This document shows positions 13,043-54,530 of a DNA stretch of 64,000 nucleotides, piece by piece (the first letter of the stretch is position 1; every line of letters starts with the position of its first letter). The notes under the pieces are model-generated. The model was not told the DNA's origin. It searched no databases and worked only from the letters and a program-made list of their open reading frames with translations. Both the position numbers and the translations under genes were made by a program. This DNA is from Giardia intestinalis (lineage: Eukaryota), in assembly GCA_000002435.2 (NCBI GenBank), contig CM018790.1; one strand, given 5' to 3'.

Positions 13043-13642
13043 CTAAATTAGTTAGTCAGTCTTGTATCTACAATTTGTTGACAGGCAGGACCTTGATACA
13101 ACATTTTGTAAATGGTATGTCTGTCCTTAGCTCCTTAGGGATTTCTGAAATCTAAAAAAATTTGGTGGGCAAAATTTTCAATCATCCGTGGCATCCCTGA
13201 AGATCATTATGAAAACACTACAACATAATCTACGACATATGTGAACACACTGATAGATGGTCTGTTTCTTGGGCAGTATAACGCCCTGCACAATCTCAGA
13301 CTTACCCTACTTCCAGGTCTGGGCTAATTCTGACATCAGTTTTGGCTTGTAGCTGGTACTTTGATGACTTCTGGGGAAGCACTGCATATGGTTCACAGAC
13401 ACTCACAGGCGGTGTAAACAAGTATGTGATTAAAATGGATCCACTACAAGCGCTTACCAGGGAAGCCTTTAGGTGAGCAGCTGCACTAGAAAAGCTACAC
13501 TAGAAAATTTTTGGTTCACTTTAGTTCCTAGTTCCCGGAGAGGTTGCGAAGGGTGCAAATAAGGGCATGTACTAATGAATTCCCGCAGCCATAGTTACGA
13601 AGTTCCTAGCACCGAAACTCACGGACAGAGAGTGCCAACTGG

Positions 13643-48600: not shown

Positions 48601-51326
48601 GAAAGAGACGCTTGCTGAGAAAGCTCTTGCTTGACTGTTTCTCTAAAGTCGTGCATACGTTCATACAGGCTTTGATCTCTTGACGTCCTGTCTGTATTAG
48701 AGGTCCGTCGTGCTGAGCTATCCTTCTGTCCGCTTCCTCTCCGCAATACGATTTTGTCACGCTGGCTTAAGTCATCACTGTACATGCTGGGCTCTCCAGC
48801 CAGTGATCCCAACAGATCCGCCGACTGTTCAAGGTGCTTTACCATGTCCATGCGAGGAATCACGAGCGATGTCTCCAAATCACTCCGTTGCAGCTGAGAA
48901 TTGATAAGACACGAGATGCTCTGCACATTGCTGGACTCTTCTGGTAGATCAACGACATCCTCCATGTCTTCCTTCTTGCCGGAGTACTCTAAACTGCCGT
49001 GTATGGGATATGCATCTAGTTGAGAACATTGCGGCGGAGTTGGATGCGCAAGCGTCTGGAGCCTCTCTTCTATGTCCTGGACATTTCTAACGTTCTGCTC
49101 TGCAGGCGCTATGGCCTCCGAAGATTCGTCAAGGAGCTGCTCTGCTGGTTGCTTCTGAAGATGCTGGTTAGTAGTGTATGGTACAGTAGCCTTGACAGTC
49201 ATCAACGGAGCAGAGTTTTCAGTAGAGAACGAGCTTTTATCTATGGCGAACCCGCTATAAACCTTCTTTAAGTCCACAATATGCTCTGAGATAGAGGTAG
49301 CTTTAATGTCTCTCTCACCCAGTTCCTTGTTCCTGCTGGCAATGGCACGCTGGTAAGAAGTAATGACTGATCCCTTAAATCCCTGGCGTTCGGGGACTAT
49401 AACCCTACGATCTAATCTGCTAACGGAATCAGTAACAGTGTCCAGTTGCTCGCTGTGGCAAATATCAGAAGCTGATCTAACCAGTTCCCTCACTGCACCC
49501 AGGTTATCAGTTTGAGGAGTGGGTACAGGACGCCCTGTTGAATGAGGCGTTCGCCAGATACGTCTTACTTCTATTGGGCCTTCGCTAATATCAAGAGTTG
49601 AATGACTAGCAGCGACATGCGTTGTCCGTGGCTGAAATGATGCGGGAAATTTCTTATCACTGTGCAATATTTGGCGAAAGTTGGACTCTTCAGAAACTGT
49701 AATTGCAGGTGCAGGTGCATTTCTCTGATCTTGGGATTGAACCTTAGAACGGGGTTTTTGATGAGGCTTAGACCTGGTAGCGCTTCGGGAAGCTGAAAGT
49801 TTTGTAAGGCTTGCGTTGAGGCTGCTTTCTATGGCAGATGATTGCGTACTGTGTTGAGAGCATATGGTTTCGAAGATTTCTTCGTCTAGTATAACCTCAC
49901 CGTGATCCTCTGCTGTGTCGTTTGCAAGAGTAGACATGGACACATTCTGACTCTGCTTATCAAGACGAGCTTCTGTTGAAACACGAGAAGGTGTCTTTTT
50001 CTTCCCAATAACTGCATAGATATTTCCCTCTGAGTCAATGCTTAATTCATCCGTTGTGGAGGTCAAGCGTTCTGACTTAGCATGGGAATAGCTGGAATCC
50101 CTGGAGCCTGTAGCAGAGCTGTATTTCTTCTCAAGAGCATCGTTATTACAGGGCACATAAGCGTGGTGTGTCACTGGCATCAAGGAAGGAGCAGTATGAG
50201 TCTTTGAATGGATTGAATTGCCGGTTGGATCATCGTCTGACTTGAGAGCAACCATATCCACATGCACAGTATCATGTTGCGATGGCTCCTGGTCTAGCAT
50301 AGTTTTGGATTCCGGTTTAACTATATTCTCGTCTTGCTGGATGGCTGAAGCGGCCACGGTATCAGTGAAGGGTTGAACACTTAAATTCATTGGTTGTTCG
50401 CAACTAATAGTGACAGGATGATGTCCTTGAGTAATGCTGTTATATGTATCGCCAAAGCAACACCTACTTTGTGTCCAGTTGGTTGTAAATTCATGAAGCC
50501 TGTCTTGAAGGTCTCGCACACTAGTGATACTTGTTCGACGCATGGATGCTGGCCTGGAAGTTGTTTTGCCGTGCTGGATGGGAAGGCTTGTGTTGTGTGG
50601 AGAAAGAAGCCCGCGGGTTGGTATGGAATGCGCAGAGGCAGGCCGCCTGCGCCTATATCTAGAAAGTACATCCTCAGTCATGCCGTGGGTTGCTGCCTCC
50701 AGGTCCATGCCCCTGTTGATGAAGTTAATGGACTCATTGAGCTCTTTCTGGGCCTTTTCATTGCTGAATAGACTGAAGTCGACCCTCATATTAGAGTCTA
50801 ACAAGTCGCGCTGGGCCTCTGGAAGAAGCTCATAGAAATTGTTGTTTCGCAACAGCTGCATGTCTCTAATAGTATACTTTCCCATGGTATTGTCAAGTCC
50901 GGTGCCAGCGCTTACTGGTCGCTTTCGCACCAAGTGCTCTAGCCTCCGGTACGTTTCACTTGACTTGTCGTTGACGCCGTCCTTGAGAAGGAGCTGCCCA
51001 TCCTTATCTATTAGAGATGCTCGTATGAACTTTAGGTCATCAACCATCGTCTCTGTGTCTAGAGTGTTTTGATCTGCATCCCCCATCTCCTTGTAGTCGT
51101 TTCTGGAAGAGCCTAGGGGCTTTGCTGATCCAGGCCGCTTGACTAATGTTCCTGGATGTGCGTTGCTGGAGCGGGATATCATTGCATTGCGTTGCAGGTT
51201 GACCTGGCTCAGCAGAGAACTATGCATAAACTGTGATGCTTCTGCTTCGGTCAAAAAGTCCCCTTGGTAGTACACGTGTATATTGCTCAACATGTTTGGA
51301 GAGGGGATAAGGTGCTGGGATCGCAT
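45633..51326 (-). CDS. Very large Ser-rich low-complexity protein (~1897 aa)
   Basis: Uninterrupted 5.7-kb ORF. The track start at 51353 is TTG; the first ATG is 51324-51326. Composition S/T/R/D-rich with no recognisable domain. Both the length and a start-codon context shared with the downstream gene argue that it is real. Confidence 0.55.
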   Translation of the reverse strand: MRSQHLIPSPNMLSNIHVYYQGDFLTEAEASQFMHSSLLSQVNLQRNAMISRSSNAHPGTLVKRPGSAKPLGSSRNDYKEMGDADQNTLDTETMVDDLKFIRASLIDKDGQLLLKDGVNDKSSETYRRLEHLVRKRPVSAGTGLDNTMGKYTIRDMQLLRNNNFYELLPEAQRDLLDSNMRVDFSLFSNEKAQKELNESINFINRGMDLEAATHGMTEDVLSRYRRRRPASAHSIPTRGLLSPHNTSLPIQHGKTTSRPASMRRTSITSVRDLQDRLHEFTTNWTQSRCCFGDTYNSITQGHHPVTISCEQPMNLSVQPFTDTVAASAIQQDENIVKPESKTMLDQEPSQHDTVHVDMVALKSDDDPTGNSIHSKTHTAPSLMPVTHHAYVPCNNDALEKKYSSATGSRDSSYSHAKSERLTSTTDELSIDSEGNIYAVIGKKKTPSRVSTEARLDKQSQNVSMSTLANDTAEDHGEVILDEEIFETICSQHSTQSSAIESSLNASLTKLSASRSATRSKPHQKPRSKVQSQDQRNAPAPAITVSEESNFRQILHSDKKFPASFQPRTTHVAASHSTLDISEGPIEVRRIWRTPHSTGRPVPTPQTDNLGAVRELVRSASDICHSEQLDTVTDSVSRLDRRVIVPERQGFKGSVITSYQRAIASRNKELGERDIKATSISEHIVDLKKVYSGFAIDKSSFSTENSAPLMTVKATVPYTTNQHLQKQPAEQLLDESSEAIAPAEQNVRNVQDIEERLQTLAHPTPPQCSQLDAYPIHGSLEYSGKKEDMEDVVDLPEESSNVQSISCLINSQLQRSDLETSLVIPRMDMVKHLEQSADLLGSLAGEPSMYSDDLSQRDKIVLRRGSGQKDSSARRTSNTDRTSRDQSLYERMHDFRETVKQELSQQASLSALAAKPRSSLNIPADFEDLPPQTFIDTAVIPLQKRLDEAIAAAMNKKPRLPADESDTLANYIEIDTDKTDDRAATPTMETLYSRQETPRPGDFSTMIEHAQCPKVHGSDDSSNLTDMAALKGVERVAVSRSDTQKPCVDISHPESPLYPLEPRQTVVHVIDLEHPELYEDVHSSINLATHANYHMLDSYRELELSTKPSEIKELAHIDKLLKEAKRLNTSLQASVNKDQLSELPVDYEAKMVLDDYELDANFPILEEGELGIDPTGEKDVILANYKKLTIDAAQKRSVHLDSYPTVPRKTCSMSGRSQEEKAIENNSREGKGSEVKWADTVLDDNEERYETASNECRQLDKAVSWNWRMFAGQGSSVASTEQGHKRTGSYTSALATSAVSQSTKSDSQQKKQKPYNKFERFTPRQFLSSTSISYTFRADQDNNSLGLSALNHSIVTDISASRQLCTNGTLPIQFEAVKDQFNHVASCTKSLLLTQDLDKSGTLDQLDVVQTPEKSSMKSSNIELYTSFSGTPSRADHLSVSRGKTALSESAHNLESKHSHGSMLSASAVQSTTSKMASRPTRIRSAAISKLVEQITSVNSTTAENLAKLGYSKARLESSRDNLLPRNTSRYNEKLEKASLLLEKPKQKASRVPSAVQSEPLSESISGFVEPQNSCSAISDVSEPQAIRAVGNPRGSTFISSGFGGTTNQQPRLLSSKATYEAQMVRIGSSARIRTRTLHPERPVALKTTNDASSSMRVTPVSTRKLSETLPGRPDSGTSRPGKLMKVADVRIGRQNQELLASSSHGDARPYYGGSALFRSVDDMVVAVPSPATRNMVISITRKASVNTPKQTTRDRYGRQSVTSSIVTSPAASKSLLSKRPRSAIASSARESISKITAVAADNEADDSGASLLLQKADLGLEPISIMAKPLAVQSPDRIIKDPYDVRGTLRDEAERFIPCRGFRVSSAGKLRLPSTIEKDIVVNIRPLTAKVGSMTRM

Positions 51327-51844
51327 CAAGGAGGAATTTCGATGATCTAGCAATTTTTGAGTGATGATTCACTTCGCCGTCGGCTGGCTCCAGCGCTATG
51401 CTACCGGGCCTCCACATGCAGGCCTGGCCCAGGAGTCACACGAATGAGCTCACTGCTGGCCATGTTCAGAGCCAGAAGAGCCGGTGCTTGACTTCGAGGC
51501 CATCATTTGTAGGGAGAGGATCTGCCCCTGCATGCTTTCTTCCACCCACCCTCAGCTGGTGTGGTGGCATACCATTTGCATATGCACAGGGTGCTTGCAG
51601 AAGAGAAGGCGTCAGAGAAAAATGGCCCGACTGCGTACTGGGCCTCTTTTGGTCTCTATTCACAAGGGATCACAGGCAGGAAGTATAGGTCAGTTGCTAC
51701 GCATCCACTCGCGTACGTTATAGCACGATTCCAGTCGCAGAGGAAGACCTGCAATATTCACACTAGCTTCACCGTAACGGTGCAGTGCATAGAATGTAGT
51801 TGGGAAACTTGTGTTATCCACACTTGTATTTGATTGCGGAGTCA

Positions 51845-52531
51845 ATGTTTGCAGGGCTTATCTTCGCAAGCCTCGTTCTGCAGTTGGCTGCGGCGACACG
51901 GCCAGCAGAAAGGAGCAGATCTGACACCCCGTGCACGGAGTCGGGGAACGACACGTGCCAGACGTGCAGCGGAAGCGGCAGCAATGAGATCTGCCTCACG
52001 TGTAAGAACAACGATCACTTCCTGACGACAAACAAGAAGGGCTGCAAAGCCGCCTGCGACGCGACGGGGGAGATAGAGACCCCGGGCGCTAACCCGAAGG
52101 CCTGCAAGTGCGACGACGCCAGCGGGTACCAGCTCCAGGGCGACGGGACGTGCGCCAAGGGGCAGGACACCCCGTGCACGGAGTCGGGGAACGACACGTG
52201 CCAGACGTGCAGCGGAAGCGGCAGCAATGAGATCTGCCTCACGTGTAAGAACAACGATCACTTCCTGACGACAAACAAGAAGGGCTGCAAAGCCGCCTGC
52301 GACGCGACGGGGGAGATAGAGACCCCGGGCGCTAACCCGAAGGCCTGCAAGTGCGACGACGCCAGCGGGTACCAGCTCCAGGGCGACGGGACGTGCGCAG
52401 TTTCTAACACAAACAAGAGTAGCGGCCTTTCTACCGGTGCCATCGCAGGCATCGCTGTGGCCGCTGTTATTGTCGTGGGGGGCCTCGTCGGATTCCTTTG
52501 CTGGTGGTTCCTCTGCCGCGGTAAGGCGTAG
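51845..52531 (+). CDS. VSP: Variant-specific surface protein (VSP)-like cysteine-rich protein with internal 81-aa tandem duplication
   Basis: Signal peptide MFAGLIFASLVLQLAAA. CXXC-rich ectodomain (TCQTCSGSGSNEICLTCKNNDHF, CKAACD, CKCDD), a C-terminal TM helix (IAGIAVAAVIVVGGLVGFLCWWFL) and the invariant pentapeptide CRGKA immediately before the stop. The track start is TTG, so ATG at 51845 is used. AGTAAAC lies 21 nt after the stop. Confidence 0.85.
   Translation: MFAGLIFASLVLQLAAATRPAERSRSDTPCTESGNDTCQTCSGSGSNEICLTCKNNDHFLTTNKKGCKAACDATGEIETPGANPKACKCDDASGYQLQGDGTCAKGQDTPCTESGNDTCQTCSGSGSNEICLTCKNNDHFLTTNKKGCKAACDATGEIETPGANPKACKCDDASGYQLQGDGTCAVSNTNKSSGLSTGAIAGIAVAAVIVVGGLVGFLCWWFLCRGKA
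51924..52398 (+). repeat. Perfect tandem duplication inside the VSP gene (2 copies, 243-bp period; 232 bp identical per copy)
   Basis: 51924-52155 and 52167-52398 are base-for-base identical (acaccccgtgcacggagtcggggaacgacacgtgccagacgtgcagcgg...gggcgacgggacgtgcgc). The period is a multiple of 3, so the 81-aa Cys-rich module is repeated in frame. Confidence 0.95.
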
Positions 52532-52551
52532 ACTCAGCTGTGTACTTAGGT

Positions 52552-52558
52552 AGTAAAC
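52552..52558 (+). promoter_or_regulatory. Putative polyadenylation signal AGTAAAC (Giardia AGTRAAY class) 21 nt after the VSP stop
   Basis: Matches the published Giardia poly(A) signal consensus. Position fits the very short 3' UTRs of this organism. Confidence 0.5.
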
Positions 52559-52826
52559 GCGTTCACGTGCTGCGTCGCGGACCCAGGAGCCCTTATCAGT
52601 ATTACCGTTTGCTCATTGGCGCTGTTGAGTTATTTTGGTCCGCCTCTATGTCAGATGTGGCCAAGAAAGAACAGATGCTCTTCGCCTCGTAAAGCAGTCA
52701 CCAATGCAATATGCATGATACAGTAGCAAGGACGGGCTTATATTCACAATAATACGTAGTAAGCAGTGGGCGGTATTACTTGCCAGCATTTTCTTTCGTT
52801 GAGTAAATCTTCGTTCAACTTCAAAA

Positions 52827-54530
52827 ATGGATCCCAGTTACTCCAGTTATTCCACTTATTCCAGCTACTCCAGCTACTCTAGCTATTCCTATAGCTTTGT
52901 AGATGATCAGGATGACTATCCAAATCCGGTGACTACAGCCACTCAGCCCTTTCATGTTGCATCGTCTCCTCAAGCGCATTACATTGCTCCAGCGCCTGAG
53001 AGTCCCAAGAGGGAAGACAAGAAGACATCCCCGCTTGCTGAGAAATTGTCGCCAAAACAGAAGAGGACTAGCCCTGGTAAGAGTGGATTTGAGTTCGATA
53101 CTAACTCTCTCAATTTCTTCTCAGCCCAAACGGCGGCGGCCGTTTCTGCGGCTGTTTCTGCAGCGATAAATCACCAGATCAACCAGAATATACTATTAGC
53201 ACCTTCAACATCGGCAGTAGCGCAGCCTCCCCCGATCTTGTCGCAACAGGCCTCTGTCGACACAGCCCCTGACACAGCTCACCAAGAACAATCATTACCA
53301 GATGCTGCTCAGCCGCCCACCACCGTCGATTCCGGGGAGAAGGCAGTGGACACATACACTATCTATTCCCCAAATCGCGCTAAGAATGCAACGTCAGAAG
53401 ACTTCGTACTTATTTCACCAGCGCAGTCGCGCCACGTCCTACGTCAGGCAGCTAAAGAGCAATCATCACCATCTGAAAACTCAATTGAGAAGACAAACCT
53501 CGCTTTGGCAGAGTTGAAAGATAAGTATATGTCGCTTTCCGCCGAATTCAGAGACTACAAGCTCAAGAAGGAGAGTGAAATTAAGGATCTGATGGCACAT
53601 GAAGCAGAGTTGCGGCAAGAGGCCCGTATTTATCAACGTGATCTACAAAAGTTAGAAAAGGATTATGCTTCAGTGATAGCAAAATTGGCCGACAAAGAAG
53701 ACAAGATTGTAGAGCTGAAGGGTGCCCTGAAGAAACTGGAGAGTACGCTCCAGCAAAAACCCCCTTTTGACATGGCTCCATCTAGAGAACAACCCACTCA
53801 GCAAGGATACAATAGAAAAGAAGTGTCTCAGCAGAAGGAAAACTATTCTCCCCCCGTGGCCCAATCCGCTGCAGTGCCTTACAAGCCAGTTGATAGCATA
53901 AGCAAAATTTTCGGTCCCACTTATGCTGAGAGTAACCCGGTAGATTCAGTCAAGCACAACCCGGCTGGTAAGGAGCCAGACCACACATTAGAACCAAAAG
54001 CATCTCATCATCCTCCAGATCCTCCCCTGGCTACTTCCAACGATGTTCCGATCATGTCCTTTGAGGAATTCCTGAGGCAACGAGCACGCAATGCTGCAAT
54101 AGAAGAGCTACAGCAGCGCGACACACAGGCCAAGAGGGCCATGGATGCCAAGATAGCTTCTCTGCAGGAACAGCTAGGATCTCTACTTACTGACGCGCAA
54201 CCCGATCATGCTACTGCACAACCTGAGGCGACATTTAGTGAAGGCGGAGAGAAGGCGTCTCACACCAAGACGACTTTCACGCTAGAGGATGTGGACAAGA
54301 CAGATCCTAATTACAAGCTGCTACAGACCATGGAGACAGACTACACAGCTATGTGTCAGCAGTTGATGCTTAATCGTGATGAGCTAGCTAATCTTGAAAA
54401 CCGCAGTGGAAAGCGCACACACAAAGAAATGATGCGCATGCGGTTTCTTGAGGCGCAGATAAGCAAACTGGATAGCGAGGCAAACCAGCTCCGCTCCAGG
54501 CTGCGAGCATTGGCCAAAGCTAAAAATTGA
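52827..54530 (+). CDS. Hypothetical protein with N-terminal (SY)n repeat and C-terminal coiled coil (567 aa)
   Basis: caaaaATG initiator. N-terminus MDPSYSSYSTYSSYSSYSSYSYSF is encoded by an imperfect agctactcc repeat. C-terminal heptads (KDLMAHEAELRQEARIYQRDLQKLEKDYASVIAKLADKEDKIVELKGALKKLE). Confidence 0.55.
   Translation: MDPSYSSYSTYSSYSSYSSYSYSFVDDQDDYPNPVTTATQPFHVASSPQAHYIAPAPESPKREDKKTSPLAEKLSPKQKRTSPGKSGFEFDTNSLNFFSAQTAAAVSAAVSAAINHQINQNILLAPSTSAVAQPPPILSQQASVDTAPDTAHQEQSLPDAAQPPTTVDSGEKAVDTYTIYSPNRAKNATSEDFVLISPAQSRHVLRQAAKEQSSPSENSIEKTNLALAELKDKYMSLSAEFRDYKLKKESEIKDLMAHEAELRQEARIYQRDLQKLEKDYASVIAKLADKEDKIVELKGALKKLESTLQQKPPFDMAPSREQPTQQGYNRKEVSQQKENYSPPVAQSAAVPYKPVDSISKIFGPTYAESNPVDSVKHNPAGKEPDHTLEPKASHHPPDPPLATSNDVPIMSFEEFLRQRARNAAIEELQQRDTQAKRAMDAKIASLQEQLGSLLTDAQPDHATAQPEATFSEGGEKASHTKTTFTLEDVDKTDPNYKLLQTMETDYTAMCQQLMLNRDELANLENRSGKRTHKEMMRMRFLEAQISKLDSEANQLRSRLRALAKAKN
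52839..52898 (+). repeat. Imperfect 9-nt (agctactcc) coding microsatellite giving the (SYS)n N-terminus
   Basis: gttactccagttattccacttattccagctactccagctactctagctattcctatagc. Confidence 0.7.

Follow-up and report, generated by a model that had tools for sequence, protein, structure and literature searches.

A window of 64 kb of Giardia intestinalis DNA, the whole stretch that was analysed, contains an open reading frame (ORF) whose 228-residue product is 100% identical to a protein of strain WB (KAE8302436.1, XP_001703858.1, UniRef100_A8C0R2) named 'VSP', for variant-specific surface protein. The next ORF downstream, at 52827–54530, is identical to GL50803_0011328 of G. intestinalis WB clone C6, on a chromosome of 1,539,535 bp. 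The product matches the Pfam VSP family, PF03302, over residues 110–228 with 65.1 bits against a gathering score of 31.4 (E = 7.3e-18); a further Pfam match, to a dsRNA-binding domain, covers 25 residues at 20.8 bits, below the 27-bit cutoff, and was rejected as noise. Adam et al. 2010 list the ORF in their supplementary catalogue (PMC2996952) as vsp266, or GL50803_15400, a complete member of clade III with the initiator (Inr) CAATGTT, 228 aa, 23.3 kDa, 22 Cys and 4 CXXC motifs. The values computed for the window ORF, 228 aa, 23.27 kDa, 22 Cys and 4 CXXC, agree with that entry. Matching to the catalogue uses a fingerprint of length, mass, Cys count, CXXC count and Inr, and because four other genes were correctly identified by the same means (P0016 as vsp128, P0024 as vsp51, P0002 as vsp97 and P0018 as vsp46) we regard it as reliable. 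The locus is a known, already annotated and ordinary VSP gene of the reference strain WB, belonging to the tandem-repeat subclass of VSPs.

The features of the gene are collected in Table 1. Residues 1–15 of the leader have a Kyte-Doolittle value of 2.14, and an AlphaFold2 model places a helix at residues 3–17; in the 2020 annotation the name VSP was retained only for SignalP-positive genes (PMC7000408). Module 1 comprises residues 27–104 and is followed by Lys-Gly-Gln (105–107) and by module 2, of the same sequence, at 108–185. The transmembrane (TM) helix falls at about residues 196–225 (nucleotides 52430–52519) as judged from the hydropathy peak, and at 200–225 in the model. The protein ends in GFLCWWFLCRGKA, which with the stop codon occupies 52490–52531, the CRGKA motif itself lying at 52514–52528. 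This motif occurs once across all frames of the window, making this the sole CRGKA-encoding ORF, and the C-terminal group that contains vsp266 also includes vsp34, vsp46, vsp97, vsp128 and vsp156. Past the stop, ACTTAGGTAGTAAAC begins after about 12–13 nt, and its 14–15-mer follows the stop codon in all seven of the other VSP loci compared. The AGTAAAC within it, 20 nt after the stop at 52552–52558, is the only plus-strand copy in the 64 kb. The first-pass annotation had called this a VSP gene with a single C-terminal TM segment, a CRGKA tail and AGTAAAC beyond the stop. All of this is borne out, the tail and TM segment by sequence, hydropathy and the modelled helix, and the family assignment by the Pfam match above cutoff, the complete identity to an annotated WB VSP and the family motifs at the start codon and 3' end. 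On the minus strand a 139-aa ORF (51842–52261) spans the repeat and is itself internally repeated owing to the duplication; we rejected it as a by-product of GC-rich (62%), repeated coding sequence, and it is most likely no gene.

Table 1. Features of GL50803_15400 (vsp266) and its flanking spacers, in nucleotide positions of the 64-kb window (AF2, AlphaFold2; TRF, Tandem Repeats Finder)
Feature	Position	Strand	Detail or basis
Coding sequence, VSP GL50803_15400 (vsp266)	51845–52531	+	ATG 51845, TAG 52529–52531; 228 aa
Candidate initiator element CAatgTT (PyAatgTT) around start codon	51843–51849	+	Sequence; consensus and vsp266 entry in PMC2996952
Leader, residues 1–26: hydrophobic, signal-peptide-like, plus short charged segment	51845–51922	+	Hydropathy, AF2
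Repeat block 1, 233 nt; 78-aa module DTPC...GDGTCA, 10 Cys, 2 CXXC	51923–52155	+	
10-nt linker CAAGGGGCAG; completes Ala, encodes Lys-Gly-Gln	52156–52165	+	String comparison
Repeat block 2, 233 nt, identical to block 1	52166–52398	+	TRF, direct comparison
Conserved VSP 3' domain: stalk VSNTNKSSGLSTG, TM helix, CRGKA, stop	52399–52531	+	Pfam, hydropathy, AF2
Extended VSP polyadenylation signal ACTTAGGTAGTAAAC, contains AGTAAAC	52544–52558	+	Common to other VSP loci
Upstream non-coding spacer	51327–51844	.	518 nt to first ATG of divergent 1897-aa ORF
Downstream spacer	52532–52826	.	295 nt to GL50803_11328

Cysteine makes up 9.6% of the protein, and the density of CXXC motifs is 5.8 per kb. For the VSP family the published mean is 12.6 per kb, with a range of 3.6–18.6 (PMC2996952), and GL50803_15400 is at the low end of that range. 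The ectodomain, described in the first pass as CXXC-rich, is indeed Cys-rich and carries its four CXXC motifs, but for a VSP it is CXXC-poor. The AlphaFold2 model, built from a family alignment of 52 sequences, has a mean pLDDT of 77.8, with values of 85–93 in the modules, and predicts short β-hairpins within each module, between the leader and TM helices. When searched against the PDB with Foldseek it gave weak matches to EGF-like and furin-like proteins, namely Pfs25, R-spondin and EGFR; the lowest E value was 7e-4, and on the query none exceeded a TM-score of 0.19. Like the modelled modules, Pfs25, R-spondin Fu1–Fu2 and EGFR domains II and IV consist of small disulfide-knotted β-hairpin units in series. 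As the only PDB matches to the model, and weak ones, they indicate a resemblance of fold type, and we claim no membership; the predicted structure fits a stack of small disulfide-bonded modules, nothing more specific.

The modules correspond to a tandem duplication in the DNA. Tandem Repeats Finder reports an array at 51923–52398 with period 243, 2.0 copies, 100% matches, no indels and a score of 952, the sole array in the window to score at least 100. Direct string comparison resolves it into two identical 233-nt blocks parted by a 10-nt linker, 476 nt in total; the array therefore amounts to 1.96 units and not to two full units of 243 nt. The perfect 243-bp tandem repeat of the first-pass annotation thus stands in its period and its complete identity, but the blocks measure 233 nt where 232 had been given, and the second unit is incomplete. 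A chance origin of 233 identical bases is out of the question. The repeat is in frame (243 nt, or 81 codons) and sits between the leader and the conserved 3' end, so that with its period of 243, 1.96 copies and 100% identity the gene falls among the tandem-repeat VSPs, defined by in-frame units of about 105–516 bp in at least two copies. In WB there are 30 of these, with units of 105–516 bp in 2 to more than 20 copies (PMC2996952); in the same table vsp266 carries no tandem-repeat flag. Such repeats have long been documented in VSPs, having been described since the 1990s, and their copy number varies between alleles (PMC2996952).

The linker, CAAGGGGCAG, differs both from the 10 nt that precede block 1 (GAGCAGATCT) and from the 10 nt that follow block 2 (AGTTTCTAAC). 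The present flanks cannot have supplied it, which excludes that today's single-copy sequence was simply duplicated in one step; what happened first can only be inferred. Together with the Asp that follows, the linker (AKGQ-D) is placed where related small VSPs have KKQS-D, either between a module remnant and a module or before the stalk, which suggests that it may be an old element of the stalk or of the stretch between modules. The block-linker-block junction was absent from the JGI metagenome contigs scanned for it.

The best database match to the protein is a shorter form of it. This match, P0001, has 147 residues and is exactly the GL50803_15400 protein minus one module and the linker. It is encoded on one contig only (L001, from Logan run SRR10662879), positions 1–1057 of which are 100% identical to window 51099–52155; the contig then runs into the stalk as if from block 2. 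Some 39 nt past the repeat it switches to the 3' end of a VSP with synonymous differences and then to an unrelated flank, its identity to the window stopping near 52437. By BLAST this 3' flank has no match among the loci compared, where only VSP-internal similarity was seen. The flank, part of the stretch 1058–1764 of the contig, is GC-rich and lacks long ORFs. L001 may be a chimeric short-read contig, or it may be a real variant or recombinant locus in another line or isolate.

A second trace of the one-module form comes from the 2010 catalogue, where vsp34 is entered with 147 aa, 15.0 kDa, 12 Cys, 2 CXXC, CAATGTT and no gene number, on a large contig (PMC2996952). P0001, for which we compute 147 aa, 15.01 kDa, 12 Cys and 2 CXXC, has the same fingerprint, a match of descriptors only, and vsp34 and vsp266 share one identical-C-terminus group. 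By this fingerprint the one-module form is very probably the vsp34 of the 2007 assembly. High vsp numbers denote small contigs (PMC2996952), and both forms were probably present in the 2007 assembly, that with one module on a large contig and that with two on a small one. Both forms in one assembly are the usual signature of two haplotypes, and this hints at heterogeneity between one and two copies. The one-module form is the exact product expected from recombination between two perfect blocks, and since the linker cannot be derived from the present flanks, contraction from two modules to one is the more parsimonious direction.

The gene stands among spacers that are long for this DNA. Between ATG-started ORFs of at least 120 aa there are 28 gaps in the window, with a median of 102 nt, and the two spacers that flank GL50803_15400 rank third and fifth largest. 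Taken to a mechanical TTG start of the minus-strand ORF instead of its first ATG, the upstream gap is 491 nt, and the flanks of about 490 and 295 bp noted in the first pass are accurate on that count. Gene-poor surroundings and long flanks are a known trait of VSP loci (PMC7000408, PMC2996952). Other long stretches lacking a long ATG-started ORF are found at 13043–13642 (600 nt) and at 36202–37744, where gaps of 831 and 334 nt surround a 125-aa ORF. The gene had also been placed alone between housekeeping genes. Alone it is, as the only CRGKA ORF of the window, but its neighbours are conserved hypotheticals; no Pfam domain was matched in the flanking ORFs, and the 'housekeeping' label is therefore not established. 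The start of GL50803_11328 (52834–52889) holds an imperfect 9-bp/27-bp tandem repeat (79–86% matches) that encodes the Ser/Tyr-rich run SYSSYSTYSSYSSYSSYSYS. No Rfam family was found in 50500–53500 at E values up to 0.1.

Isolate DH (A2) and other contigs of assemblage A keep the order of genes downstream, and the downstream spacer is 93–100% conserved in the other assemblage-A contigs. The slot upstream of the GL50803_11328 orthologue, syntenic to about 52000–52531 of the window, is occupied in DH (L005:2–466, AHGT01000078.1) and in an ENA metagenome contig (L006:1–429, k141_105576) by a different, larger VSP with an unrelated ectodomain. At the DNA level it resembles the window only from 52421 onward, a position within the conserved 3' domain and about 16 nt from the point where L001 departs, and because these breakpoints lie so close together we take the start of the conserved 3' domain to be a point of exchange or of assembly confusion. 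Both the DH and the ENA contig end inside their VSP; among other short-read contigs, L002 starts inside the 3' domain (52492), and L007 and L009 start just after the gene. The exact neighbour protein is found on 143 contigs, and the VSP was called on one Logan contig only, which fits a locus that breaks assemblies. The earlier statement that such loci are accessory and assembly-prone is borne out by these broken contigs and by the different VSP in DH and the metagenome.

Of the ten top-scoring relatives, seven are small VSPs of 127–171 aa, each having a single homologous module. P0002 (185 aa) and P0003 (212 aa) also have one module and owe their extra length to an N-terminal extension, and the remaining one, P0004 (260 aa), has two modules. 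P0002 (WB GL50803_10562) and P0003 (L003:5451–6089, DH) are both annotated from an upstream ATG, which adds 37–67 spurious residues before the CAatgTT (37 in WB), and the DH copy ends in CRGEA, not CRGKA. GL50803_10562 (vsp97; XP_001706456.1) is the closest WB paralogue, with a similar leader, an identical C-terminus and 67% local identity; it differs in having one module and in lying at another locus, its DH orthologue having other neighbours. In the protein database search no orthologue exceeded about 71% identity outside the cluster formed by WB and P0001, and GL50803_15400 is therefore lineage-specific. Three of the NCBI Giardia duodenalis entries (P0008, P0009 and P0011) are clear small VSPs, with Pfam VSP matches and CRGKA, under the source names 'ATPase involved in DNA repair/chromosome segregation' and 'Permease', which look like annotation errors in draft Giardia assemblies. 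A 159-aa protein from an ENA contig, P0005, has a leader of a different type, MLNKFALVVLILQLARAERHAAAQ, and has in common with GL50803_15400 (residues 65–90 and 146–171) an uninterrupted 27-residue stretch, NKKGCKAACDATGEIETPGANPKACKC, the rest of the module being much less similar. This mosaic pattern is suggestive of recombination between VSP genes.

Two or three identical modules occur in five relatives: P0016/vsp128 and P0024/vsp51 in WB, the latter with three copies, P0015 in DH, and P0004 and P0014 on ENA contigs. At the DNA level the duplication is 225 bp in 2.2 copies in the DH gene and 264 bp in 2.1 copies in an ENA contig gene, both at 100% identity, although consensus calling could account for some of this perfection where the assembly is from short reads (L010, L011); in vsp128 and vsp51 of WB the duplications are identical at the protein level. 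Modules are 96–100% identical within a gene, the residual differences arising only from where the module ends were cut, and 26–62% identical between repeat-bearing genes. Because five genes with different periods and boundaries all have undiverged copies, frequent gain, loss and homogenisation is to be favoured over five coincident recent events. The first-pass reading of a recent duplication or ongoing homogenisation is reasonable, and the base-perfect duplications in homologous small VSPs lend it support. Together these patterns suggest recurrent unequal recombination behind the module duplications of small VSPs, in agreement with the variation known for vspA6 and vspC5.

The closest parallels in WB are vsp128 (GL50803_112207; KAE8304928.1) and vsp51 (GL50803_112693), which like GL50803_15400 belong to clade III and to the same size class and have two or three identical modules. 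Both share its arrangement of a leader followed by identical Cys-rich modules of about 70 aa, and in vsp128 the C-terminal block NTNKSSGLSTGAIAGIAVAAVIVVGGLVGFLCWWFLCRGKA is identical as well. The modules of the two genes are, however, only 28–31% identical to those of GL50803_15400, with periods of 216 and 207 compared with 243, and both are flagged for tandem repeats by Adam et al. 2010 (TR216 x2 for vsp128, TR207 for vsp51), whereas vsp266 is not. VspA6 (CRP170, vsp67) and vspC5 (vsp90) also have in-frame tandem repeats, flanked by the leader and the conserved 3' end. Alleles of both genes differ in the number of repeats, and the repeats of vspA6 are immunodominant (PMC2996952). In contrast to the 1.96 copies of a 243-bp unit in GL50803_15400, where the unit is a whole structural module, these genes repeat a unit of 195 bp or 105 bp at least 20 times, and their proteins are far larger.

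Is the duplication genuine, or could the true gene be the one-module, 147-aa form and the second block an artefact of assembly? Such an artefact would account for the one-module form in a single Logan short-read contig, and probably also for vsp34 on a large contig of 2007 when the 228-aa vsp266 was on a small, unplaced one. The identical 228-aa two-module protein is, however, accessioned in both WB annotations, that of 2007 (XP_001703858.1) and that of 2020 (KAE8302436.1), and an artefact is unlikely because the second of these releases rests on a de novo assembly of PacBio long reads (PMC7000408). The array itself makes it very unlikely, since at 476 nt it is shorter than a single Sanger or PacBio read and contains a unique linker; assemblers tend to collapse repeats, not to make them with a unique 10-nt sequence in between. 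We consider an artefact highly improbable.

A different doubt concerns what the two-module gene encodes. The weak structural matches to EGF-like and furin-like proteins (Pfs25, R-spondin, EGFR) might point to another kind of cysteine-rich membrane protein, an HCMP or some other EGF/furin-like repeat protein. It is the CRGKA tail that separates VSPs from other cysteine-rich families, HCMP included (PMC7000408), and GL50803_15400 has this tail, whereas an HCMP is a type I Cys-rich membrane protein that lacks it; with a VSP-type TM segment, the VSP 3' UTR motif and the Pfam VSP match above threshold all found as well, the probability that the protein is not a VSP is close to nil. Less extreme, though still improbable, is the proposal that GL50803_15400 is a silent or decaying member of the family which never appears on the surface, being a functional pseudogene or a recombination cassette. 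For a VSP the protein has an unusually small size and few CXXC motifs, searching the literature for GL50803_15400 brought up nothing pertinent and no mention of its expression, and Adam et al. 2010 (PMC2996952) propose that the only role of some vsp genes is that of recombination cassettes. That cassette proposal, however, concerned Inr-less downstream genes of linear arrays, and GL50803_15400 is solitary and has an Inr, the CAatgTT initiator linked by the same authors to efficient expression (PMC2996952). Its ORF is intact, with a leader, a poly(A) signal and a long upstream spacer, and expressible vsp genes typically have an extended upstream non-coding region (PMC2996952). The 2020 annotation, which requires a SignalP-positive leader, calls the gene VSP and not pseudo-VSP (PMC7000408).

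We conclude that GL50803_15400 is in all likelihood a small clade-III VSP, a type I protein of two modules whose number has been shaped by unequal recombination or slippage. The encoded protein begins with a leader; then come the two identical modules, each of 78 aa and disulfide-rich, with Lys-Gly-Gln between them, and after these a short stalk, the TM helix and CRGKA. From what is known of the family, this 23-kDa protein would coat the trophozoite when it is the sole member expressed. The module duplication would have arisen by homologous (unequal) recombination or by replication slippage between module copies, and the same process could keep the copies identical and could delete one of them, giving the 147-aa single-module form. 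By analogy with other VSPs, gain or loss of a module would change the valency and size of the exposed antigen, the gene itself remaining the same.

The significance of these observations lies mostly in curation, the gene being already annotated and variable tandem-repeat VSPs having been known since the 1990s. What is added is limited to two points: the repeat was left unflagged in the 2010 table, and a one-module counterpart probably exists. GL50803_15400 belongs in the count of repeat-bearing VSPs, of which the 2010 catalogue has 30 without flagging it, and the vsp34/vsp266 pair may be a simple case of heterogeneity in module number within the reference strain. Assemblies from short reads break here at the short repeat and the conserved 3' end, and this matters when VSP repertoires are compared across isolates. 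More tentatively, and with the balance of probability against it at present, WB or close A1 lines may carry both the one-module and the two-module GL50803_15400, with small VSPs of clade III gaining and losing modules too fast for the copies to diverge. If so, such a module 'accordion' would change antigen valency independently of VSP switching.
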